NCBI GenBank assembly: GCA_008632985.1
Contig: QPGO01000058.1
Coordinates: 62,001 to 126,000 of the forward strand
Origin: Psammoneis japonica
Taxonomy: Eukaryota
Length of the DNA stretch: 64,000 nucleotides
Direction of reading: 5' to 3'
In this document: one piece after another, positions 1,634 through 19,679 of the stretch
Layout of the letters: each line of letters starts with the position of its first letter
Numbering within the stretch: the stretch's first letter is position 1
Program-made: the position numbers and the translations under genes
Notes under the pieces: model-generated
The model's input: only the letters and a program-made list of their open reading frames with translations
Told to the model about the DNA's origin: nothing
Database searches by the model: none

Positions 1634-2285
1634 TTACTGTTTCTCGTCTCTCCTCTCACTGCACTCACGTTTTTGTCCCTTGAGCCATCCCTTTCGTTGA
1701 CATTCTTGAGAACAATAAAATTTCTGTTTGCATCGACTGCATCGCTTTAGTTTGTACCCAAGTGCGCATTTTCCGCAAACGTCGCAAGGCTCCACGGCGT
1801 CACCAAGGCGTCGTCCTCGAAAGCCATCAAGAAGTTCATCGACCTTTTTCTCCAGCAATCTCCATGGTGACGTCCTCGAGAGCTCCTTCTGGCTTTTCCG
1901 GAAGACAAGCATAAAAGGTCCAACAGCGGACAAAAGCTTCGAACAATCTCTTTTCTTCTTCTTCCGGAACTGGCTCATCTTTGTTGTCATTCATGAATCC
2001 GAACGTTTGCCCTCCATGCAGCTTGAATGTTCTCAGAAAGGCGACCCACTCATCTTCTGTCCACTCTTGTCGCTTTGACCAGTCGCCTACTGGCATCCAG
2101 GAAAGCCCCATGGCAGAAACCGCTGCACACCTGTCTGCCAACACCCGCCAGCATTCCCTCCAGCCTTTCTCGGTGTTTGGGGTCAGCACGATTTGATGAT
2201 GATTCGAGGGTGAACCAAACACTCTCCATCCCAGCCTTACAAAAGTTGACTTGTATGGTTCCTGAGCTTGTTCCTTTGTGGACAT
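1634..2285 (-). pseudogene. MYND zinc-finger protein interrupted by a 1-bp frameshift (pseudogene or assembly indel)
   Basis: ORF 1836-2285 (...MEIAGEK) joins the 1634-1990 frame (VDELLDG...CDVCGK...KRCSRCKQKFYCSQECQRKGW) if one base is removed from the T5 run at 1845-1849. Confidence 0.7.
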
Positions 2286-2607
2286 GACGTTCTATACGAG
2301 ATGCGGGGCAAGTAGTGGGCAAATGTAGCGTCATCGTACAGCATTATCGTGCGTCGCGGTTTCGTTTTGAGGGATGAGCAAGAGTTTTTCGCGGGCGCAC
2401 ACCAGACGAAAAGATTCGCATCATTCAAAACCTTCAATGACGAAGGTTATGATTAAGTCTAGCAATTTTTTCGTCGCTCGCTCGTCTCTCGTCTCTCGTC
2501 GCGTTCGGCACCACAATGGCGTCAATCTTTTGGTTGCTGCGCTCTCGCTTGCTGATCTCTGAATAATCATATAAATCACAATATCAGTCTTCCTCTCTGT
2601 TGCCAGC

Positions 2608-4188
2608 ATGTGGTGGCAAGCTTTTGTGGTCGTTGCGACGGCCATGCCTGTTTGTACTATGGCCCGAGCTGCAAGACGACCCATGATGATGAGATTTACG
2701 CATGCGGTTCCCGTACATTCCGCTGGAAGAGATGACGACGCCTCATCACCCGGTATGGTTGTAAACTGCTCGGAACTCTACTTTACACAAGAGATGGATC
2801 ACTTTGCTCCGTCACCAGCGACGTTTGAACAACGCTACTTTCTCAACGATGAGCATTACCGAACGGGCGGTCCCATGTTTTTTTACCTGGGCAACGAAGC
2901 AGACGTGACGCTCTATGTCAATGCGACAGGTCTCATGTGGGAAAATGCCAAAGAGTTTGGTGCGCTTGTTGTCTTTGCAGAACATCGATACTACGGAAAG
3001 AGTCAACTCTTTCCAAAGGACCCCCTGTCGGACCTTGGCTTTCTTTCAACGGAACAGGCAATCATGGATTATGTGGTTTTGATTTCTCATTTAAAAGAGG
3101 TATACCGTTTCGAGGAAGCTGACGCAGTTATTGGTTTTGGGGGTAGCTACGGTGGGATGCTGGCATCATGGGCTCGGTTCAAGTATCCTCATGTTTGGGA
3201 TGGATGCATCGCGGGGAGTGCACCTATCGTATCCTTTGAAGGGATGGACCCTCCTGTACCGCCAAACTTTTATGCGGAAGGAGTCACCTATGATGTCACT
3301 CAGGCAGCTGGAGCAAGCGAATTCTGCGAACAAAACCTGCGCAAACTCTTTGCAGGAGAAGGGCTCGCTCATGTGGACCCCTTGCTTATTCGCTCTGCCT
3401 TTCAGATTTGCAAGGATGATGATACTGCTGATGAAGATCTGCCCTTGAGCGTCACCGAATGGTTGGGCGAAGCACTGAGCTACATGTCCATGGGGAACTT
3501 TCCCTATCCGAGTACATACATTCTGAATGGGGACGGGCAATTGCCAGCTTTTCCCGTTCGTGTGGCCTGTGAGAACTTGGCCAAAGACATGACTGGCAAT
3601 GATCAGATGGAAGCGTGGCTGGCGGGTTTGGCAGCGTTTGCAGGCGTGTACTACAATTACACGTCTGCGCTGGAGTGCAACACCCTTGCAGCACCCGTCA
3701 ACAACGAGAGCATGATTGTAAACACGTTGTGGAGCTATCAGTACTGCACTCAAATCTTTCAAATATTTGGGCAAACCCCCGACGATCACGACATGTTCTC
3801 GGATCACCCCTGGGACGGTGATGCAACAGCTGCGAACTGCGTGAGGCAGTACGGCACTTATCCGGACCGCCTTCACTTTGCATTGTCCTACGGCAATCCT
3901 AGCGACTGGGCCCGTGAAGCGTCAAATATTGTCTGGTCTCAGGGAGAGTATGACCCATGGAGAGGCGGTGGTGTAGTTGAAGAACTGAATGATTCGCTCG
4001 TTGCGGTTGTAATCGCAGAAGCTGCTCATCATTTGGATTTGTTCTTTTCCCATCCGAACGATACTGATGCTGTGATATCCGCTCGCAAACTGGAAATGGA
4101 CAATGTGCGAAAGTGGATCAAGGAGAAGAAGGAGAGAGGAATGGCGCACGAACCGAATGCAAGCCTCCAAGGAAATCGAATCGCGTAG
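2608..4188 (+). CDS. PRCP: Serine carboxypeptidase S28 (lysosomal Pro-X carboxypeptidase-like), secreted
   Basis: Hydrophobic signal peptide. Motifs QEMDHF, FFYLGNEA, EHRYYGKS, nucleophile GGSYGG, DPW and AAHHLDL. 526 aa, intronless. Confidence 0.92.
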   Translation: MWWQAFVVVATAMPVCTMARAARRPMMMRFTHAVPVHSAGRDDDASSPGMVVNCSELYFTQEMDHFAPSPATFEQRYFLNDEHYRTGGPMFFYLGNEADVTLYVNATGLMWENAKEFGALVVFAEHRYYGKSQLFPKDPLSDLGFLSTEQAIMDYVVLISHLKEVYRFEEADAVIGFGGSYGGMLASWARFKYPHVWDGCIAGSAPIVSFEGMDPPVPPNFYAEGVTYDVTQAAGASEFCEQNLRKLFAGEGLAHVDPLLIRSAFQICKDDDTADEDLPLSVTEWLGEALSYMSMGNFPYPSTYILNGDGQLPAFPVRVACENLAKDMTGNDQMEAWLAGLAAFAGVYYNYTSALECNTLAAPVNNESMIVNTLWSYQYCTQIFQIFGQTPDDHDMFSDHPWDGDATAANCVRQYGTYPDRLHFALSYGNPSDWAREASNIVWSQGEYDPWRGGGVVEELNDSLVAVVIAEAAHHLDLFFSHPNDTDAVISARKLEMDNVRKWIKEKKERGMAHEPNASLQGNRIA

Positions 4189-4372
4189 TACCTACTGTGT
4201 GGGGAGTTTTTGCGAGAGTTAATCAGGTAGCTTAATTTCTTTAGGTCCGTTATGTACATCAGTGCCTTGCTGGTCTGATTTCGTAGTACCTACTGTGTGG
4301 GTAGTTTTTGCTAGAGTTAACTAGGTAGCTTAACTCCTTTAGGTCCGTTTTATACATCAGCGCCTTGCTGGC
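4184..4372. repeat. Two-copy ~98-bp tandem direct repeat in the convergent 3' intergenic region
   Basis: cgtagtacctactgtgtggg...catcagYgccttgctgg occurs at 4184-4273 and 4282-4372 with few differences. Confidence 0.9.
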
Positions 4373-4420
4373 TTTAGGGGACATTGTGACACTTCGCTAC
4401 GCAGCTCAAACTTATGCTCG

Positions 4421-5875
4421 CTAGACAACGCACTTGACGCATCCTGAGAAGCGGCAGTTCTTATCAGCGCGTCGGCGTGCTCCCTTCTTGTTCTTTCTGG
4501 TCAGTATCGCATGGTCGCTGGCAGTACTGCCAGACATCGATGCGTCATCGCTGGTCTGGAATGCCCAATCCAAATTCTTGTTTGGAAAACCATGGCTGTG
4601 AGTGTTTAGTTGGTAGTAGGATACTACACTGCTTGGAGAATTCCTATTCGTCGAGACTCTGGACTGTCCACTTGAGCTCATATCCGAAGAAGCGACAGTT
4701 TCTGCAGTTCCATCTCCAGGTATCCACTTTGGGAGTTCCCTGACTGATTTGGGTGTTTGTTCGATTGGCTCTTCTTGTGTAATAAAGTAGGGAAGGTTCA
4801 ACCTTGGCACAAGCTTGCACGATTTTGGTGTCCTCTCATCTTGCCCGCTGTTGTCGGAGAACCTCGAATGACCAGCACCATTTCGATTGCGAGTACCAAA
4901 CGAGCTAGCGCTCAACGCGACCGACTTGCTGGAGCATGACGACGGAGAAATCGATTTAACTGGTTTCTTCTTCTTTTTAGCTGTGCAAGACGGCGTGCGA
5001 GGAGGTTCGTCATCCTCAAGCAGAGAGATGTGTGACCCACTCGCACTAAAGAACGTATCTTCAGTACAAGATTGTTCCAGGGAGCATTCAATACCCACCT
5101 CCTCGACGGGTGGAAGGAACGCCGGATCTTGAGTAAATTTCACTTCATAGGAGCTACTACTGTCAGAATCCGATCCTAATAATCCAGCTTCCACATAATC
5201 TGGAGCAACAGACGGAACAAAAGGTTGGCCAGTAATGTTTTTGACAGATGCAAAGTAGGAAGTCAAATCTGGCCCTCTCTCTGTAACTTCAGGCATGATG
5301 TGTCTGCGGTATTCTTCTTCATCAATCGACAGCGACACGTCATTAAGGTACACCAACAGCGTTGCAACCTGCTCTCGACTCTTCTCTCGCATACGTTTAA
5401 TCTCAGGCTTTGATGAGTAGTAGTCCTTATGAAGTGGCAACACCTTGGTCATGAATTTCACCAGTCTGTGGCCTTGCGTAAAGGATTCGAGCAGGTTGGA
5501 CCAATCATCCTCACCGAGACCTCTCACGAAGTACTGTTTGACCATCCATTTGGCAACAAAGTCGTTCATAATACGCCCCGCCAGTGCAAAGTAGTCCTCC
5601 ACTGGCACTTGTTGTCTGATGCAAAAAGAGAGACCGCCAGCCTCCTCATCTTTTTCAACGAGCCTGTCACGCAACTTTCGTCCTCGTTCTCTCCAGTACG
5701 CATCCTCTCCCTGAGCAGCGAGCGACAGCCTCTTCTCTTCCAAGTTATTTCGACTGCTTACATCAAAAGAGCCATTGTACGCATCATACGGATTTTGGCC
5801 AAAGGAAGGAGCGGTCTTTGAACGTGCAGGAGGGATCATGGTGAAAATTGTTTTCGTTTCTCGACAAAACTTCAT
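4421..5875 (-). CDS. Hypothetical protein: N-terminal USP8-dimerisation/AMSH-MIT-like helical domain plus Ser-rich disordered tail
   Basis: 484-aa ORF (start may be 5839). VEDYFALAGRI...QGHRLVKFMTKVLPLHKDY resembles the USP8_dimer domain. Clear paralog at 9027-10179. Confidence 0.7.
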   Translation of the reverse strand: MKFCRETKTIFTMIPPARSKTAPSFGQNPYDAYNGSFDVSSRNNLEEKRLSLAAQGEDAYWRERGRKLRDRLVEKDEEAGGLSFCIRQQVPVEDYFALAGRIMNDFVAKWMVKQYFVRGLGEDDWSNLLESFTQGHRLVKFMTKVLPLHKDYYSSKPEIKRMREKSREQVATLLVYLNDVSLSIDEEEYRRHIMPEVTERGPDLTSYFASVKNITGQPFVPSVAPDYVEAGLLGSDSDSSSSYEVKFTQDPAFLPPVEEVGIECSLEQSCTEDTFFSASGSHISLLEDDEPPRTPSCTAKKKKKPVKSISPSSCSSKSVALSASSFGTRNRNGAGHSRFSDNSGQDERTPKSCKLVPRLNLPYFITQEEPIEQTPKSVRELPKWIPGDGTAETVASSDMSSSGQSRVSTNRNSPSSVVSYYQLNTHSHGFPNKNLDWAFQTSDDASMSGSTASDHAILTRKNKKGARRRADKNCRFSGCVKCVV

Positions 5876-6449
5876 CGTTGTGACGCTCTGGCTCGTAATT
5901 TCTGGTTTGTGGTTTCTGATCCTTTTTTACTTTTTACGTGAGAATTAGTACTGGATAACGTACAGTAACGTAGATTGCGTAACTCGTACGTTTCGTACTG
6001 ACTCATTGTAAATGCGACACATGAACAATAACGGCTTTTCCTAAACACGCTAACGCCACGTAGCATCACTATCTGAACATATCGTTGAAACTCTCTAAGA
6101 CAAAATTTCGTTTTCCCATCAACGCTCCAAAGCTCTTATTGATTCATATAACATTTATGACTTATTCAGTTTTTATTGATTTTAAAAAGAAATTTAAATT
6201 CATATAACCCTTATGGGTAAATGATTCAATGAATGTCGCCAGCGTGTCTTCGCTCGTCCTTCACCCGTGTCTCACATTTTGTTTACACGGACATGGACAG
6301 GCATTTTGGCGCGAACAAATCCTTGCAAACGGAATTCTTCAAACGCGATCCTGCCGCAATAACCGGTCATGCTGCATTCAACGGTGCGTGGCGGATTATC
6401 ACTCCAGATTCAGAGCTGCAGCAGACGAGAGTACGCCATCTGTACCACC

Positions 6450-10179: not shown

Positions 10180-10796
10180 TTTTTGCTGGGAATGATTCTG
10201 CTACTTGTAAACTGCAATCCTGAGTTTCTCCAGCCTATGGCTTCGATTGCTGTCGTTTCGCTTTGTTGACGACTTTGGTCTCTGGAACTTGCAACAAGGC
10301 GGTCGTTCTCTGAGCAACATAACTGCTTGCCGTGAGATCCTTCAAGAGGAAGAAGAGAGGATGATGTGAAACACGAGAATTGACCGCGCCGGCCGTTTTG
10401 ATTTTTCAAAAAATATCTCAATACTGAACGGATTGACGTAGAAGCTACTACACATTCAAATATACAAACCTAAGAATCTGAAGGAAGCATTATCCTGAAG
10501 ATGCCATACAGAAGATGTAACAATAGATTCAAGTATCAATACAGAAAATAAAATCGACCGTTGAGTTGGCTTTCTCGCGCCATTTTCTTGCCATTTGAAA
10601 ACTTCAGTCTCTACTTGAACCCCAGTATCTATCTACAGCATGTAGATCCTACATGATTTTGTACCGGATGCAATTGCCCCCAATGATTTCACGTTTCGAT
10701 AATCTCTGTCTCACAACATCATCATCATGAAGAGCATCTCATCGAGATAGATCGCTAGCGAGACAATTGTAGCGCATCAAAGCAACGACAACAAAC

Positions 10797-13411
10797 ATGT
10801 TACAGTCCTTCCAAAGAAAAAGTACGAGAAGGCATGGTGTAGCTGTCTTCGCTCGTACAGCACGACGAACAACAAGCGCTACCTCTAGGCTCCATCACGG
10901 CTTGTCGAGACCGCGGCTCGGTGCCGCTGACAATCGTTGTTTGACATCTCCTGTTGCGACTTGTGAAAAGAGCATTTTCGATAGATCAGCGTTGATACAA
11001 ACACGTCCACTCTCGTTATTGAGCTTATCAGGTATGGATCATGACAATAACAGCTCTCCCCGTTTCAGATCAACTCAGGTTCGAACCAAGGTTTTTGTTT
11101 CTCGGCACAACACGACACTGAATGTGACGTCCGCGCAGATTTTAGAGCAATGTTCCAACCATGGCATTTCCACTGCAGATGCTAGAACGTCACAGTCACA
11201 CGTTATTCTGAAAGAATGCCCCTTTTGTCCGAAACCAACCAACAACAAGGCCGATAATTTGTACAAGCTTTACATTGGGATTGGGGGAGGCGCTTACTTT
11301 TGTCATCGTTGTGGTGCCAAGGGGAGTTGGTATGATTTTAAAATGAAGTTTGGCGGTTATGATGTTGTACAGGCAACCGATAAGGGAAGCTCGACTCATG
11401 CAGCGTCCTTGGCACAAGAGGCGAACTTTTCTTCAAACAACATGCAGTCGCGCAGTAGTAGGAGTCCCAGCAATATTCGATGCCTACCAATGCCAGAGAA
11501 GCGTTTACAGGCAGCGTACATTACGAGACTTATGGATCAACAAAACAGAGCTTCCCAAGAGGGTCTCCGGTACTTGAATGACGTTCGGGGTCTTAACCAT
11601 CAGACGTTGCGGAAATATGGTGTCGGACTCGGAGTTTACAAGTTCCCATCGAATGATGCAAGCTTGCCACCAGGACACATGTTTGACGCAGAGTGTATTA
11701 CGTTTCCGTGGATAATGCGAGCTAGTGATATTGCAGAACAGGAAGGCTTACGTGGAGCGACATTTGAATGGAAAGCTCAAGAGGATCAAGAGAGCGAAAG
11801 CTCGAAGGAGTCGTCGTCCGTGGACGAGTCTGCCTCAGATGACGCAAAAGGACCGTTTGTGACTCGGAGGATCAAGGCTCGCGCTTTGAACAACAAGGCG
11901 TGGCAACGTTTGGATCCAGCTGGAGGCGGCTGGGGGCTCTTTGGGTATCACACGGTTCCTCCGGATGCTACCGAGATTGTCATTACAGAAGGAGAATACG
12001 ACGCCATGGCGGTCTATCAGGCTACCGAGAAACCCGCAGTGTCGCTCCCCAACGGATGCCGATCTCTTCCCGTCGAGGTGTTGCCCTTGCTCGAGAAGTT
12101 TGAAAAGATTTACCTATGGATGGATAATGACGGTCCTGGACAAGAGGGAGCGGAGAACTTTGCCAAGAAGCTCGGTTTGAACCGGTGTTTTATTGTAAAA
12201 CCGTCAACGACGGGGGCGCACGAACCCAAAGACGCCAACGAGGCGCTGCTCAAGGGAGTTGATATTAAAGAAATGTTGGATCGGGCTAGCATAATGCCAC
12301 ATGAACGAATCATGCAATTTACTGAGCTTCGATCACAAGTGCTGCACGAAATCATTAATCCTCAGAAGTATGTCGGAGTGGCGGTGCCTAGTCTTCCTGC
12401 CTTTACCAGCATTGTAAAAGGCTTTCGACGCGGAGAAATGACTGTATTGACCGGACCAACGGGATCTGGAAAGGTAAGTTACGTAATTGGTCGATGAAGA
12501 AAATGCTACCATGTGATAGTGACTCGCTCACTGGTTTAGTATCATTCTAGACAACCTTTCTTGGACAAATGTCTTTGGATTTTGCAGAACAGGGTATCAA
12601 CACTCTGTGGGGTAGTTTCGAGATCAAGAATACCCGCCTTATGCACAAGCTTCTCCAACAGCATTCCAAGGCGCCACTTCCGGTCGGACAAGCCGAGTCT
12701 ATTGCAGCTCTTGAAGCTGTGGCAGACCGCTTTGAACAGTTGCCGCTCTTTTTCATGAAGTTTCACGGCGGATCCGACGTGGATGATGTCTTGGACGCCA
12801 TGGACTATGCAGCCTATGTTCACGACGTGGAACACGTGATTCTCGATAACTTGCAATTCATGATTACGCGCAACACCGGCTTTGGGTCTTTTGACAAGTA
12901 CGACATTCAAGACATGGCGATTGAAAAGTTTCGAAAGTTTGCAACCGAAAAGAATGTGCATGTGACACTCGTGGTGCACCCCCGCAAGGAGGATGAAGGG
13001 GCCAAGCTCGGTATTTCGTCCATTTATGGCAGTGCCAAGGCGACGCAAGAAGCAGATACTGTTTTGATTCTTCAGAATGACGGAAGACGAAAGTACTTGG
13101 AAGTCAAGAAGAACAGATTTGATGGAACTTTGGGATATTCTCCGCTACATTTTCAACACGCCAGTGGTCGGTATACGGAGACACCCGAAATGGCATCCAA
13201 AGCTTCGCCAAAGACATCGAAACCACCTTGTCAACCAGCTGCTTCTGGATCGTCTCAACCTAGCGCCACCCAACCCGTGGCTTTCGTTCCCCGTTCTACC
13301 GGTAGTTCCGTTGACGGACAGCAGGCAACATCCGATCAAGACAAGGATAGCGAAGTTGAGAATCACTGGGACTCAATATTATTTGAGTCAAATGATCCAG
13401 AAGAAAACTGA
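10797..13411 (+). CDS. TWNK: Twinkle-type (T7 gp4-like) primase-helicase, probably mitochondrial; exons 10797-12473 and 12551-13411
   Basis: Zn finger CPFC...FCHRCG and TOPRIM ITEGEYDAM / WMDNDGPG / PKDANEAL. Walker A GPTGSGK|TT is reconstituted across GT-AG intron 12474-12550. ILDNLQF, LVVHPRK, GSAKATQEAD, KNRFDG. Arg/Ser-rich N-terminus. Confidence 0.95.
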
Positions 13412-13611
13412 GTCCTGATGGGAGTTAATAAACAGAGAGCATTGTAGCTACATACAGTCGATAAAGATATTCTTGCGTTTTAGATAATATCCTATTCACC
13501 GATAATAACAAAGACATGCTGCTAGACGAGTAGGCTATAAGCTAAGAGGCCGTCGAAGATTTTACTGCCAATGGGTTACGCAGACACACGTAGGTCTTCT
13601 CTCCCTCGAAG

Positions 13612-14169
13612 CTACTTGCTAACGGCCTCCTTAAAGGCGGTGTAGGCTTTGAACTTGGGGCGGTCCTTGGCTGGAATCGACAATGGTTCGCCCGTGCTTG
13701 GATTTCTGCCGGTGCGCGCCGAAGAACGTTTTGACTCGAACGTACCAAAGTTGGCGATGCTAACACGCTTGTCTTGTGACACGGACTGAAGAAGATTGTA
13801 AGAAAATACAGCATAGATGGGGTTAGACGGCAGCATGGAAAACGGACTACCGTATCAAATACGGTAGATCATAGCTCTGTCTCTACTGTTGCCAAAACCA
13901 TAACATAAGAAATCAGCAGAGTCATTCTCGCTCTTTCTTACCTCGGAAATCGTATCAAAAAGAGACGCAATGATTCGACTCGACTTGGCTACAGTCAAGT
14001 CATTTTGTTCTGCAATCACCTTCGCCAGATCCTGACGGGTTACAACCTCCTTCTTCTGCTTAGCTTTGGTTACCAAACTCTGCCTCCAGGTCCAGAAGCT
14101 ATGACGATTGGTTGTCTTTGCCTTCTGGGCAATGCCTTTGAGCGTAGCGGCAACCTGAAGACTCGCCAT
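13612..14169 (-). CDS. HU: Bacterial histone-like HU/IHF DNA-binding protein with N-terminal extension; exons 14169-13942 and 13785-13612
   Basis: TRQDLAKVIAE...SLFDTISE|SVSQDKRVSIANFGTFESKRSSARTGRNPSTGEPLSIPAKDRPKFKA is the HU signature. Phase-0 intron GTAAGA...TTCAG at 13941-13786. Confidence 0.92.
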
Positions 14170-14600
14170 GGTGAAATCTTGACGTTGTTTCTGTCTTGCT
14201 CTGTCAAAACTGCCAAACCGTTGTCGCAACGCTTGCTCGGAATTTGAAAAGTTTAGCCTACAATGTGCACAAGTTAAATTTTGAATCGGAAAATAAATCA
14301 CGTAGGGCCCTACCGGTATGGGAGTAGAAATGACATTTTCAGTTTGATGCGTCTGTACGTCATCATTGAGCGGCGTAGCAATTCGCTCGATCGCGCGCGC
14401 GCGCACACTCCGCAAAGGGCGCACATCGCCCATCAGAGATCGGCCGGTTTTGAGGTTGACACTGGCCATGGCGGCGAGAAGCGAGAACAGCCTGTGCGAG
14501 AACGGCGTCGTCAAGCTGAGGGACGAGTGATCCTTTCATAAACTATGACTAAAATCAACCGTATGTTTGTTATGCTTTAAAAACTGAATGGTCAATAGCC
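14170..14600. promoter_or_regulatory. Probable bidirectional promoter shared by HU and the POP-like gene
   Basis: 431-bp gap between head-to-head ATGs (14169 minus, 14601 plus). Contains a CG-rich core (cgcgcgcgcgcgc near 14392-14404). Confidence 0.5.
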
Positions 14601-17600
14601 ATGTTGAGGATTTTGTCTTCTTTACGCTCACCGACCGGTACGCAGTGCAGCTCTCGTGTTTTTCGGAGCACATTATTTGTTAATCAACACGCTCTTTGTT
14701 TTGAAGCATCAGTCCTCTCGAAATCAGCACGCTTTTCCACCAAGGATGCTCCTCTTAAAAGGGCATCCAAAGCATGGAAGAAAGGACTGGAAGAGTTGAA
14801 AAGTTTCAAGGAACAACATGGCCACGCAAGAGTGCCTTTTCGCTATGTCAACCACAAAACGGAGGGAAAGCCGTACAAACTAGGGAACTGGGTATCACGG
14901 CAACGAACACAGTACCGATTGTTTGTAAAGGGAGAGCCATCCTTTTTAGATAGTAAACGTATAGCGGTTCTGGAAGAGCTGGGCTTTCAATGGGATGCAA
15001 AGAAAGGGCCAGTAAAAGCAAAGCGGAGTGAGAAAGTTGTAAAATCATGGACAGAACATTACGAGGAACTGAAATTGTTTAAAGAAAAACATAGTCACTG
15101 TAACGTACAGGATGCGAAAGCGGATGCATCCTTGTTAAGATGGGTTCGGCAACAACGACGACAATACAAACTGCGGGTTCAGGGAAAGCCAGCTTCCCTT
15201 AAGGACGAAGATATTGTAGCTTTGGAGGATCTGGGTTTCATTTGGGATCCAAAGTATGCTGATTTGCACAATTTATCATGGAACGAATGGTTTGGGATGC
15301 TGCAGGAGCATGGCGACTGCTCTGTCCCAAAGAGAGAAGGAAACTTGCTTGGGAAATGGATCGCCTATCAACGAAGTATCTACAAGATCCTAAAAGAGGG
15401 CAACGTGATTGTTCCGTCCCTAACTCCAGAAAGGATTAAAGCCCTAGATGAACTCGGATTTAAATGGGAGAGTCCAAGGAACCGATCATGGGAGGATTGG
15501 CTGGAGATGTTGCGACATTACAAGGCTGAACACGGCGACTGTCATGTGCTTGCCAGTTCTGGACCATTGGGCTGTTGGGTTGCTCGGCAACGAGGCTTTT
15601 ACCGTCAGCGCCAAAACGGAAAACACACACCTCTTACAGATGAAAAGATACATCAACTCGAAGACCTGGGGGTGAAATGGGTGGCATCCAACGCAAAACG
15701 CGAGACCAAGTGGAACGAACGTTTGGACGAACTAAGATTATACAAACAAACGCACGGGAACTGTAGAGTACCTACAACTGCTTCAATTGGCGGGCTTAAA
15801 AACGAGCATGCACAACTTGGAATTTGGGTGAAATATCAGCGTGAGCAATACAAACTCTTCAACGAGGGTAGACCAACGTCCATGACTAGTGAGCGGATTG
15901 CAGCTTTGGAAGACTTGGAATTTGAGTGGGAGCTCCGGCCACATGAATCCAGGTATAAAGAGGTGTGGAAGGCGTGGCGAAGACAACTGTTGCAATATAA
16001 GGAAAAGCACGGGGATTGTAGGCCGTCAAGGGAAGAAGGGAACCTCGCTAAATGGATAGACCAACAACGATACCAGTATCACTTGTGGAGACGAGGAAAA
16101 GAGTCGTCAATGAACTCTCAAAGGATTGCATCTCTCCTGGAGCTAGGGTTTGAATGGGATAATCACAAACATGAAGCTCCCCGTCAAACATTGAACGGTA
16201 CCTGGAATCCAGCAGATCCACTGGTTTGGACTAGTTCGTTCGGGAGACGCTCTGCCAAAAGTGAAGAAATGCTTCGTCGTCTTGTGCAGCTTCAGCCGGG
16301 TGAGCTGGGTTACTTTGACGTATCCGAAACTGTAGTTCCAAGTGTTTCTATTGTTCGAACCAAAGACCAGGCAAGAACTGCTTTGGACCGCCTAGTGAAG
16401 TCAAGTCCAAGCGTTCTTCATGCATGCGACGCGAAAGTCATGGGCATTAATCTGAAGAAAGAAGGCCCGGTTGGCAATGGATACGTAACATCCATGACGA
16501 TATATTCTGGTCCTGATTTTGATTATGGCTTGGGTGATGGACCTGGAACAACTCTCTGGATTGACAACCTTGACGAATCTTATGGTCTTGTCAGGGAGTT
16601 CACATCATGGCTGGAGAATGATCGGCATGTTAAAGTATGGCACAATTATGGGTTCGTTCGACATTTGCTTTGGAACGAAGGGATCGATTGTCATGGTTTT
16701 GGTGGTGACATTATGCACATGGCGCGCCTTCAAGACACACGGCGAGCTATCACCGGCAATCGGACTGGTTACAGTCTTGACGGGCTTCTATCAGCTATTT
16801 TAAAAGAATGGAAGCCTGCCATGATGGACGAGTTGGCATCCAGACGACAACAAGTCATGGTGAAAGAACAGTTATCCCGCCAGTCGAAGTCATGCAGCGT
16901 GATCCTAGATTTCGCGAAAAGTTCATCAAGAATTTTTCTTCTGACACCAGAGGCATATGGGGGCTACGGAACGAGCTTCAGCGAGAGTTGGAGAGGATGC
17001 CTTGGTTCGGCAGTCACAACATGTATGACTTCTACTCAATGTATATGAAGCGGTTCGGGGTAGTTTTGACGGAAATGGAAAGACGGGGTATCAGGTTGGA
17101 TACAGAAAACTTGATGTCTCGAGTCAAGGAAGAACTCCAGAACGATCGAAAGATGCACGTTATGGAATTTCGAACATGGGCGTCCTCAAAGATCGGTCCG
17201 AACGGTTGGACTCTTGATCCAGAGGACCCAATGCAGCTTCGTACTTTTCTTTTTGGGGACTCTGGGGAACAGACTACCTTGAATCTTCCATACGAGGACG
17301 TGCCTTTTGAAGATATGAGTGATTTACAGCTTCGAGCACTCTGCAAGAGTCGGGGTCTTGACATTTCAGGGAAGAGACTAGAATTGCTTATTCACTTGGG
17401 GCTAGACTCCACCGAGGCGTGGAGTAGGATCCGTGTCAACGAGTCGGCTCACCAGGAAAGAGAAAAACGATTTACTGTCCAGCGGTCAAGGTTGCAAGAA
17501 GATAAATGGGACTTGCACTTGAACGAGCTTCGTGAGTACCTCGCCGCACATGGACATTGTCACGTCCCAACTAGCGCGGGCTCTTCTCTTTCAAATTGGG

Positions 17601-19006
17601 TCTCTCGTCAACGACATGAATACTGGCGCCGTGCGGAGGGCAAATCTTCATCGATGACAGACGAGCGAATCGCAGCGTTGGAAGAATTGCGCTTTGAATG
17701 GGTATTGAGAGAATCGACCGCAGCAGAGATCAGGGCTCCGAGTGGCGACAGATTTGATGTAGTCATTACTAGCCTTGGAATCCCAGCTGAGAGGCTCGAC
17801 AGCGATGGCGAAGCAAGCGTTTCTACTGACGTACTGCGAAAGCTGGCTGGCAATCCATTCCGAGGAAAATACGGATCGGTATGTATTTAACGTGACGTCC
17901 CGTTGGCTTGTTGCAAAGCACCCATCGTCGCTTCACTCAAATGTACTCTATTCGCTCGTACTGAACCAGGCTTACGACTTCTTTGGAGGTGGAAAGGAAG
18001 GCCACGATGCCTGCGTTGCATTGTACAGTCTTTATGAAATCGACGTGATCAATCGTCACAAAGCCAATTTTTGGACTCACCTCGAGTCTGTGGCTGATGA
18101 ACAAAGTCGAGTTCACTGCTCCATCAATTTAAACACCGAGACCGGAAGAGTTCTTTCGCGTCGACCAGCTCTTGAGAACCAACCATCACACTTGATACGG
18201 AAAGTTTTCAATGCATCACCAGGAAACAACCTTATTGTTGCCAACTACCGACAGCTGGAATTTCGTCTCCTTGCAAGCATGTCGAATTGCGATTCCATGA
18301 TTCGTTTGTTCCGAGAAGGCGGTGATATACACGCCAGGACCACTTACGACATGTATGACCATGTCAAAAAGGCTGTTATGAGGAAAGGTGCTTGTTAGAG
18401 TGGGACTCGAGCCAGGGCAAGCCTAAACATCCTCTTCTTTGCGACATGTTTCCGAATGAACGTCAAATTGCAAAGGATCTGAATTTCCTCGTTCTCGCTG
18501 GTGAACCCGTGAGTACAATCTCCCTAAAAACTGGTCTACCACAGACAACAGTATCAAGCATACTAAAAACCTGGCACGAATCTTATCCAGAGACATTGGT
18601 GTGGCAGGCGGAGAAGAAATACTTCGCAAAAAAGCACGGGGTTGCACGAACCCTCCTTGGACGATACCGGCTCTTGCGAGATGGCAACGGTGCGGCGATA
18701 TCACCCATTTCCGATCGAGTAAGCATGACAACACCTATAGAGGGCAGCGTTGCTGACATTTCCATGTTGGCAATGCTAAAACTTAGTGAAAGCGACCTTC
18801 TGAGAAGACTGGGATGGGTGTTGTTGATGCAAATGAACAATGAAGTTCTTTTGGAAGGACCGAAGGAGACGGCAGAAGAGGCCTTATTTGAAGTTAAGCT
18901 TTGCATGCAAGAACAATGGGGCGTGGCGCTGAAAAATTCTCCTGTGCCAATAGAAGTCGATGGAAGTTGCAAACATTCAAACTGGTTCGATGCCCAGGAG
19001 TTCTGA
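14601..19006 (+). CDS. HA-repeat / SAP / POP-type family A DNA polymerase-like protein with degenerate catalytic motifs; intron 17879-17969; two apparent 1-bp frameshifts (~16833, ~18377)
   Basis: Six N-terminal HA repeats (W..L..YK..HG.C.V...LG.WV..QR....L..LGF.W). POP exonuclease region HACD..V..I.LK..GPVGNG, KVWHNYGF, MHMARLQD. PPVEVMQRDP, EMERRGI, a SAP motif, a 7th HA repeat, YGS|AYDFFGGG, RVHCSINLNTETGR, GGDIHART and LLEGP. Confidence 0.85.
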
Positions 19007-19064: not shown

Positions 19065-19679
19065 TTATTTCTGATCGCTTGAAGAGTTCACCCACTTTGT
19101 GAGCGCCTTTAAAGCCCCCATACGTTCTACTCCGTGTTGTCGTGCTGTTGCTAGGGCCTCTTCTGTTGCTTCCTCAGGTGTGAGCTTGTACCGGTAAACG
19201 AGCCAACCCGCGGCAACCCGACCAGATCTGCCCATACCGTGGGTGCAATGCGCCACAGCTCGTTCTTCCCGTCTTTCAATTTCACCTAGCTTTGTCATTA
19301 TCAAATCAAACGAACCTTCTTTACTAAATGGAGTGTGATGAACATTCAATTCAGGAGATGCACTCTTGTATGCTTCCAACAAGCCGGGAGGTTGGTAATC
19401 CAACAATTCATCTTCCCCCAGCAAAACAAACACGTGCTGGATCTTGTGCTTGGAAATGGCGCGAACCCATTCTTCTACAACCCTTTTCGTATCCAACTTG
19501 CAATTTCCGGGAGGATCGCCCCCAGGTCTCTCGCACGTGAAGAGCACGGTGTCTCTTGCGGAAGCTGGGCCAAAATTGCAAAGACAGTCTGGTTTCTTTG
19601 GCGTCACCACAGTCTCCTCGCCGTTCATCTCCATAGTTCGATCTCCATCTTGAAGTTTGATGCCGGTAGTGCTACTCAT
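19065..19679 (-). CDS. Dual-specificity/tyrosine protein phosphatase
   Basis: CX5R active-site motif AHCTHGMGRSG. 204 aa. Confidence 0.88.
   Translation of the reverse strand: MSSTTGIKLQDGDRTMEMNGEETVVTPKKPDCLCNFGPASARDTVLFTCERPGGDPPGNCKLDTKRVVEEWVRAISKHKIQHVFVLLGEDELLDYQPPGLLEAYKSASPELNVHHTPFSKEGSFDLIMTKLGEIERREERAVAHCTHGMGRSGRVAAGWLVYRYKLTPEEATEEALATARQHGVERMGALKALTKWVNSSSDQK

Follow-up and report, generated by a model that had tools for sequence, protein, structure and literature searches.

A POP-derived gene with replaced catalytic residues next to the Twinkle and HU genes of Psammoneis japonica

In diatoms, POP is regarded as the replicase of the organelles. Loss of both metal-binding aspartates abolishes the activity of family A polymerases, as in Klenow mutants, and some inactivated polymerase domains have been retained for non-catalytic roles, among them the C-terminal half of the catalytic subunit of Pol epsilon and inactivated archaeal polymerases of family B. 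As far as the accessible part of PMC6523293 goes, P. tricornutum and T. pseudonana are each reported to have a single POP gene, presumably dual-targeted. We describe here a stretch of DNA of Psammoneis japonica (assembly GCA_008632985.1, contig QPGO01000058.1, positions 62,001 to 126,000), called the window in what follows, which is the whole stretch of 64,000 nt that was analysed and whose own positions are used for all coordinates. Three genes are direct neighbours in it: Twinkle (10797-13411, + strand), HU (14169-13612, - strand) and a gene derived from POP (14601-19006, + strand). The initial annotation had recognised these three adjacent genes and had taken them for a co-regulated cluster for the maintenance of mitochondrial DNA, with Twinkle and POP as its replisome. 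The identities and the adjacency hold, in the case of POP by descent only. The trio is real but it is not a working replisome cluster, and its POP copy appears, by sequence, to be catalytically dead.

Descent and catalytic residues of the POP-derived protein

The full-length diatom POPs P0017, P0066 and P0016 align end to end with the POP-derived gene when they are searched with tblastn, and in a tree of 41 rows its protein falls inside a diatom-type POP clade of 38 rows, which is split from the POPs of plants and green algae with a support of 100 in the Shimodaira-Hasegawa-like approximate likelihood ratio test (SH-aLRT). The end branch of the protein measures 2.34 against a median of 0.29, that is about 8-fold, and with a branch of this length its exact place in the clade is not fixed. 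In the first POP tree it had grouped with the bacterial-type row P0135; we regarded this grouping as a long-branch artefact and rebuilt the tree without P0135. No POP retrieved is more than 49% identical to the protein. For single parts, the best identity is 64% in the exonuclease part and 48% in the C-terminus of the polymerase. It shares with the canonical diatom POP the order of an exonuclease-like domain, SAP and a family A polymerase domain, and its basic N-terminal stretch, a putative presequence, resembles the part of the canonical POPs that begins at their internal Met. It differs in that seven HA domains have been added, most of the scored catalytic residues are replaced and an upstream signal-peptide-like core is lacking; it has a single SAP, against three stretches in P0017, which is free of HA.

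The polymerase motifs were read from HMMER alignments to Taq polymerase, with the usual motif names and Taq residue numbers, and the Exo motifs were read from tblastn with the Cylindrotheca POP P0017. In motif A, the canonical LDYSQIE reads ANYRQLE in the window, the Asp being replaced by Asn (codon 18243-18245). The canonical motif B, RRAAKTINFGVLYG, reads ERQIAKDLNFLVLAG: its Lys and Phe are kept, while Arg has become Gln (18464-18466) and Tyr has become Ala (18497-18499). PVQG reads PIEG, with Glu in the place of Gln, and in motif C QVHDE reads QMNNE, so that His-Asp has become Asn-Asn (18836-18841). Two Glu residues of the polymerase motifs are kept. In the Taq numbering, the changes are D610N, R659Q, Y671A, Q754E, H784N and D785N. 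The exonuclease motifs are altered as well: in Exo I, DTE of P0017 reads DAK (16428-16436), where Glu has become Lys and the Asp is kept; in Exo II, YGFDRH reads YGFVRH, with Val for Asp (16656-16658); in Exo III, YSCYD reads NFSSD, with Asn for Tyr (16931-16933) and the Asp again kept. Three of the five scored residues of Exo I-III are thus replaced.

We then counted the same residues in an alignment of 136 retrieved relatives, taking as denominators the rows which have a residue in the column. The Exo I Glu is found in 130 of 131 rows, the Exo II Asp in 130 of 131 and the Exo III Tyr in 129 of 132; the motif A Asp is found in 53 of 56 rows, and the His and Asp of motif C in 51 of 51. None of the 136 relatives has the set of changes seen in the window, and the rows which deviate, few in number, are truncated or of bacterial type. 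In 41 full-length POPs, 212 columns reach a conservation of at least 97%, and the window protein has changed 66 of these columns and kept 146. Pfam finds its DNA_pol_A domain in two pieces (E 2e-20 and 3e-20) with 73.5 + 72.8 bits, about 146 bits in all, against 251.5 bits in P0017. The exonuclease family PF01612, which Pfam detects in P0017, is not detected in the pieces of the window, and a search of PDB sequences with the degenerate exonuclease piece gave nothing at E ≤ 1. In the ESM Atlas, the clusters returned for the N-terminal 744 aa were all exonuclease-like, with values no higher than 0.81, and can serve as leads at most.

Because its catalytic residues are replaced, we infer that the POP-derived protein can neither polymerise nor proofread. 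The idea that Twinkle and this POP form a replisome is not supported, since both polymerase Asp are now Asn and most of the scored Exo residues are replaced. It would be wrong to annotate this gene as the organism's organellar replicase, and a working POP is expected elsewhere in the genome.

Non-catalytic derivative or decaying duplicate

The frame of the POP-derived gene is broken twice in the window, near 16832 and near 18377. The gene models were read from the sequence and then compared with read contigs from two public runs, X1 and X2, of one sample. The contigs of both runs have a T inserted after 16832 and an A inserted after 18377 (one contig per run per site). There is a short homopolymer at each of the two sites, 16832/16833 and 18377/18378; each insertion restores the frame, which in the read contigs extends over 1,438 codons free of stops (the two breaks being read as X). 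No contig in X1 or X2 supports the frameshifted version, and therefore the frameshifts of the window are most likely assembly indels, or at most those of one allele. The assembly would then have single-base indels which break real genes, and other gene models may suffer from them too. The other indels within the coding sequence are of 3 nt (14671, X1) and of 12 nt (15303, X2); both are in-frame allelic insertions and both fall within the HA-repeat region, while the flanking non-coding indels are of 3, 4, 1 and 1 nt.

In X2 contigs the intron of HU and that of the POP-derived gene are each removed exactly as predicted (see Table 1 for the joints), and one more contig spans the POP-like intron unspliced. 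From this canonical removal of introns and from the patchy cover, X2 seems to be RNA-derived, though it is recorded only as 'DNA?'. If X2 is read in this way, HU and the POP-derived gene are expressed and spliced as modelled.

We favour, though without great confidence, the reading that the gene encodes a non-catalytic pseudo-polymerase and is not a decaying duplicate. The pseudo-polymerase would probably be DNA-binding and mitochondrial; it would have gained six N-terminal HA domains and an internal one, with the fold of the exonuclease and of the polymerase kept, and it would persist as a component of the nucleoid or as an accessory of the replisome. The open frame itself speaks for selection. 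When random substitution was simulated over the 909 POP-homologous codons, at 85% amino-acid identity, none of the 300 replicates was free of stops (mean, 7.9 stops). As stops arose in all the replicates and the real frame is open, most of the divergence took place under selection for a translated product.

It is unlikely, as we see it, that the gene is instead a young duplicate, transcribed and decaying, whose place beside Twinkle and HU is due to chance in a compact genome. The two frameshifts in the window would agree with such a duplicate, but both sites are in frame in the only contigs which cover them. The very long branch would agree with it too, as would the failure of Pfam to find the exonuclease domain, the linkage which is not conserved (see below) and the lack of any other recognised organelle-DNA gene among the 82 window open reading frames scanned. 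Decay is hard to reconcile, on the other hand, with 1,438 stop-free codons at no more than 49% identity, when all the simulations of drift gave stops even at 85% identity, with coding indels that keep the frame, with 146 near-invariant POP columns out of 212 left in place and with the existence of a spliced form of the transcript.

Several observations nevertheless weigh against the pseudo-polymerase. The allelic differences within the gene are 5 synonymous and 13 non-synonymous, which cannot be distinguished from the 22% of synonymous changes expected at random (binomial p 0.57); such changes look neutral, as a decaying duplicate would have it, and constraint on the gene may be weak at present. 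In the phosphatase gene at 19065-19679, the allelic differences are 7 synonymous and 4 non-synonymous (Fisher p 0.12 when compared with the POP-derived gene). It is possible that the two frameshifts belong to a real null allele instead of being errors of assembly. X2 is recorded as 'DNA?', and its RNA nature was deduced from the spliced contigs. Lastly, the relatives retrieved are all ordinary POPs and include no ortholog of the dead form, a point which also suits decay; these sequences give no sign of long-term conservation of the dead form.

The inactivated family B domains mentioned above offer a comparison. In them, as in the window protein, the polymerase fold is kept, the metal-binding carboxylates are lost and a structural or binding role is presumed. 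Those examples have been conserved over very long times, and the window protein, unlike them, is of family A, organellar, fused to HA and seen so far in one lineage. Our literature searches, which did not cover supplements, turned up no dead paralog of POP, and in the accessible part of PMC10877234 the terms 'inactive', 'catalytic residues' and 'pseudogene' occur 0 times. If the pseudo-polymerase is real, this expressed and in-frame derivative of POP would be the first pseudo-polymerase of its family, as far as we could find.

HA domains (PF03457) are abundant in diatoms; to our knowledge they have no known function, and that they bind nucleic acids is a suggestion made by Pfam. In the window protein the six N-terminal ones are found by Pfam with E 1e-90, in 6 stretches from residue 56 to about residue 520, and the seventh stands where the canonical diatom POPs carry SAP repeats; HA repeats make up about half of the protein. 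PF03457 occurs in none of the 120 relatives listed for the exonuclease part. Tandem Repeats Finder sees no array in the HA region, hence the repeats are old at the DNA level. A modelled HA unit is a confident three-helix bundle, with a predicted local distance difference test score (pLDDT) of 92. Foldseek matched this model to no known structure at E ≤ 0.001. With VIA-align the top match is 2kta (Z 6.5), a domain from structural genomics whose function is unknown, and all others have Z ≤ 4.7; no function can be inferred from these matches.

A second case was found in metagenomic DNA. At locus L040 (127-1470, + strand), an open frame of 448 codons holds the N-terminal part of a Twinkle, an HA domain, Toprim and the start of the helicase. 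The HA domain (E 6.8e-16) is inserted in frame into the linker which connects the primase part at the N-terminus to Toprim. The L040 protein, a diatom-like Twinkle, appears to represent an independent second union of HA with an organellar replication protein, and going by these open frames, fusion of HA to a protein of the organellar-replication type would have happened at least twice. HA thereby gains a concrete context, since the POP derivative and the L040 Twinkle are both organellar replication proteins.

At another metagenomic locus (L008), a separate gene with four HA domains (2170-3285, + strand; Pfam E 1.9e-47) lies directly upstream of a Twinkle (3676-6308). If HA genes are abundant, their being side by side there may be due to chance.

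Twinkle, HU and the compartment of the three proteins

An N-terminal zinc finger is kept in primase-active Twinkles. The Twinkle of the window, a product of 845 aa, shows such a finger in its translation (CxxC...CxxC, here CPFC ... CHRC), followed by a Toprim primase and an SF4 RecA-type helicase with a Walker A motif which is split by the intron. Pfam recognises Toprim_2 (E 1.3e-8) and AAA_25 (E 1.4e-15), and the solved structure 7t8b of the mitochondrial DNA helicase Twinkle in the PDB is matched by the N-terminal half with E 5e-34 and by the C-terminal half with E 9e-59. Zinc finger, Toprim and SF4 helicase are those of the mitochondrial primase-helicases of the T7 gp4 type, and in comparison with known Twinkles the window copy has nothing unusual; the HA insert of the L040 Twinkle is absent from it. 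All this suggests an intact primase-helicase, which probably serves the mitochondrion. The mitochondrial role assigned to Twinkle in the initial annotation fits the accessible part of PMC3914683, where Twinkle is mitochondrial by green fluorescent protein in C. merolae and where it is argued that diatoms, whose DnaB is plastid-encoded and whose DnaG is nuclear, use Twinkle in mitochondria. A long antisense open reading frame at 12545-13144 (- strand) was rejected as a gene: its apparent conservation in more than 50 loci is an opposite-strand artefact of the helicase exon.

The HU product has 133 aa. Its exon 2 matches PF00216 (Bac_DNA_binding) at profile positions 36-89 (E 1.6e-17, 63.9 bits) and its exon 1 at positions 1-34 (18.6 bits); 32 solved HU/IHF sequences of the PDB are matched, the best with E 3.6e-12, the motif GRNPSTGEP is present and the fold is complete, including the beta-arm. 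A search for exon 2 among longer proteins gave no match. Exon 2 has 6,289 matches; N-terminal extensions of 30-100 aa with the look of mitochondrial presequences are carried by many of the 150 best representatives. The organellar HUs known from the apicoplast (PfHU), from Chlamydomonas (HLP) and from red-algal plastids likewise have a complete fold with its beta-arm and an N-terminal extension. The window HU is nuclear-encoded, as is the HU of apicomplexans according to the accessible part of PMC2528193.

The 5' end of HU rests on one contig end, the X2 contig ending at 14176. Upstream of the ATG the frame is open to 14535, that is over 122 codons (14170-14535, - strand), with an in-frame ATG at 14469. 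By our own estimate from base composition, an open frame of this length would occur by chance in about 0.2% of cases. We set aside a start at 14469: the protein would begin with an acidic, non-hydrophobic stretch, and an allele has a 1-nt deletion at 14274, because of which we argue that the stretch upstream of the ATG is non-coding.

Diatom plastid import requires a signal peptide. Targeting was read from crude hydropathy and charge counts over the first 40 residues. Twinkle has 10 R+K and 0 D+E there, with a best 10-residue hydropathy of 0.78; HU has 9 R+K and 0 D+E, with 1.41; the POP-derived protein has 4 R+K and 1 D+E, with 1.56. The hydrophobic cores of the canonical diatom POPs P0017, P0016, P0028 and P0094 score 2.29-2.93. 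It had been claimed that all three proteins begin with basic, acid-poor N-termini devoid of a signal peptide, and the counts agree with this, in the sense that none has a signal-peptide-like core. The four canonical POPs have a signal-peptide-like core, an internal Met and then a basic stretch, one of them with an AFAP-type site; this layout suggests dual targeting to plastid and mitochondrion by alternative starts. The POP-derived protein opens directly with the basic stretch, and there are only 16 in-frame codons upstream of its ATG. Since the basic start is kept and the upstream signal-peptide-like core of the POPs is lacking, the N-terminus suggests a protein which goes to the mitochondrion only. 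For all three proteins together, we lean slightly towards a shared mitochondrial location.

A doubt comes from HU. In the accessible part of PMC5499826, eukaryotic HUs form one clade, found mainly in plastid-bearing lineages including stramenopiles, and they are mostly plastid proteins, often with signal peptides; the closest core relative of the window HU, P0157 (55% identity), has a hydrophobic N-terminal start. These two facts count against a common mitochondrial location. One may then suppose that HU serves the nucleoid of the plastid and that the trio shares neither compartment nor function, all the more as the open frame above the HU ATG leaves the 5' end not fully settled. We find this doubtful: the start of HU scores 1.41, against 2.29-2.93 in the POPs with a signal-peptide-like start, the upstream start at 14469 offers no hydrophobic stretch and its frame is interrupted in an allele, and many of the extended HU relatives have N-termini which look like mitochondrial presequences. 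The window HU differs from the known organellar HUs in having no signal-peptide-like start, and therefore a mitochondrial destination is possible. A mitochondrial HU would be unusual for the clade as described in the accessible part of PMC5499826, and if it is truly mitochondrial, the known range of eukaryotic HU would be widened.

Linkage and layout of the locus

The initial annotation had named conserved linkage in relatives as a check. We scanned metagenomes with the Twinkle helicase domain and obtained 80 loci with 41-81% identity, of which 47 reach 1 kb or more downstream, 13 reach 5 kb or more downstream and 12 reach 2 kb or more upstream. Neither HU nor POP was found beside Twinkle (E ≤ 1) in any of the 80, a weak test in which no other window open reading frame was syntenic either and in which close relatives are not sampled. 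A conserved linkage is thus not supported: the linkage is not widely conserved, and this says nothing on close relatives. Three organelle-DNA genes are unlikely to stand in a row by chance; with about 100 such genes among about 10^4, a rough value is of the order of 10^-4 per position. The trio is most likely a lineage-specific arrangement and not a conserved operon-like module. In the reading that we favour, three adjacent genes for organelle DNA proteins are each transcribed separately, and the divergent promoter of 431 bp could co-express HU and the pseudo-polymerase.

Two distances given earlier proved exact, namely the 200 bp from the end of Twinkle to the HU stop (13412-13611) and the 431 bp from ATG to ATG between the head-to-head HU and POP-derived genes (14170-14600). 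The indels of 3, 4 and 1 nt in the former are as expected, this spacer being non-coding. In the latter, the divergent promoter space is about 280 bp, between the X2 contig ends at 14176 on the HU side and at 14457 on the POP side, where the X2 contig starts. X2 contigs leave uncovered the Twinkle region 10400-13225 and the positions 14177-14456, and nothing was inferred from either gap. In so compact a genome, short spacers between head-to-head genes are nothing unusual. The word GCGAGAA has three copies within 29 bp of the HU/POP-like spacer (14474-14502) and one copy, in the opposite orientation, at 10572-10578, 225 bp upstream of the Twinkle ATG. It is not enriched over the window (11 matches against 8.5 expected), and we rejected it as a shared promoter motif.

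With these data the co-regulated cluster can be weighed, in which Twinkle and this POP would replicate mitochondrial DNA and HU would package it. The adjacency, the head-to-head promoter and the basic N-termini free of signal peptides are all confirmed, Twinkle binds POP-type polymerases in Arabidopsis according to the accessible part of PMC6554949, and of GCGAGAA there is one copy upstream of Twinkle and there are three between HU and POP. A protein with the two polymerase Asp and three Exo residues replaced cannot be the replicase, however, HU and POP are near Twinkle at none of the 80 metagenomic loci, and GCGAGAA is not enriched in the window. We hold this cluster to be very improbable.

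A different role for the trio can be imagined. In this diatom lineage, a duplicated POP would have been turned into a non-catalytic subunit devoted to the mitochondrial DNA machinery, within a young co-expressed nucleoid module. The dead polymerase/exonuclease scaffold would keep its surfaces for binding Twinkle and DNA, the seven HA domains would tether the POP derivative to DNA or to Twinkle, and the gene would share its divergent promoter with a mitochondrial HU beside Twinkle. The HA inserted in the Twinkle of another diatom-like organism (L040) is cited for this scheme, which in its full form we judge improbable.

The features of the locus are collected in Table 1.

Table 1. Positions of the features of the three genes and of their spacers in the window
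Feature	Position	Strand	Remarks
Twinkle exon 1	10797..12473	+	basic presequence, zinc finger, Toprim; ends within Walker A (GPTGSGK)
Twinkle intron, 77 nt, GT..AG	12474..12550	+	sequence only; frame continues GPTGSGK/TTFL across the intron
Twinkle exon 2	12551..13411	+	SF4 helicase domain, then low-complexity tail; stop codon included
Tail-to-tail spacer, Twinkle stop to HU stop, 200 bp	13412..13611	.	allelic indels of 3, 4 and 1 nt inside
HU exon 2	13612..13785	-	beta-arm with RNP..G motif; stop codon included
HU intron, 156 nt, GT..AG	13786..13941	-	X2 contig joins 13785 to 13942
HU exon 1	13942..14169	-	ATG at 14169; basic extension of about 42 aa and first 34 residues of HU fold
Divergent intergenic spacer, HU to POP-like start codons, 431 bp	14170..14600	.	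three GCGAGAA copies at 14474-14502
POP-like N-terminal part	14601..16181	+	basic presequence and six HA domains
HA domains 1-3 (PF03457)	14784-14993, 15036-15245, 15258-15467	+	Pfam
HA domains 4-6 (PF03457)	15471-15680, 15720-15929, 15948-16157	+	Pfam
Degenerate 3'-5' exonuclease-like domain	16182..17050	+	tblastn with P0017; first frameshift after 16832
SAP motif	17306..17380	+	Pfam SAP E 5e-6
HA domain 7, internal, between SAP and polymerase domain	17492..17701	+	Pfam E 7e-18
POP-like intron, 91 nt, GT..AG	17879..17969	+	X2 contig joint 17877 to 17969 (cut +1)
Family A polymerase domain	17970..19006	+	predicted dead motifs; second frameshift after 18377; stop 19004-19006

The window has a GC content of 44-51%, short GT..AG introns and diatom proteins as its best protein matches, and it looks like diatom nuclear DNA. 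Beyond the trio, Pfam recognised no other organelle-DNA gene among the 82 other open reading frames of at least 130 aa; the families found elsewhere in the window are zf-MYND, peptidase S28, GH5, CDKN3/DSP phosphatase, bactofilin, kinase, bestrophin-like and MFS. The CDKN3/dual-specificity-phosphatase-like gene (19065-19679, - strand) has its end 58 bp beyond the stop of the POP-derived gene.

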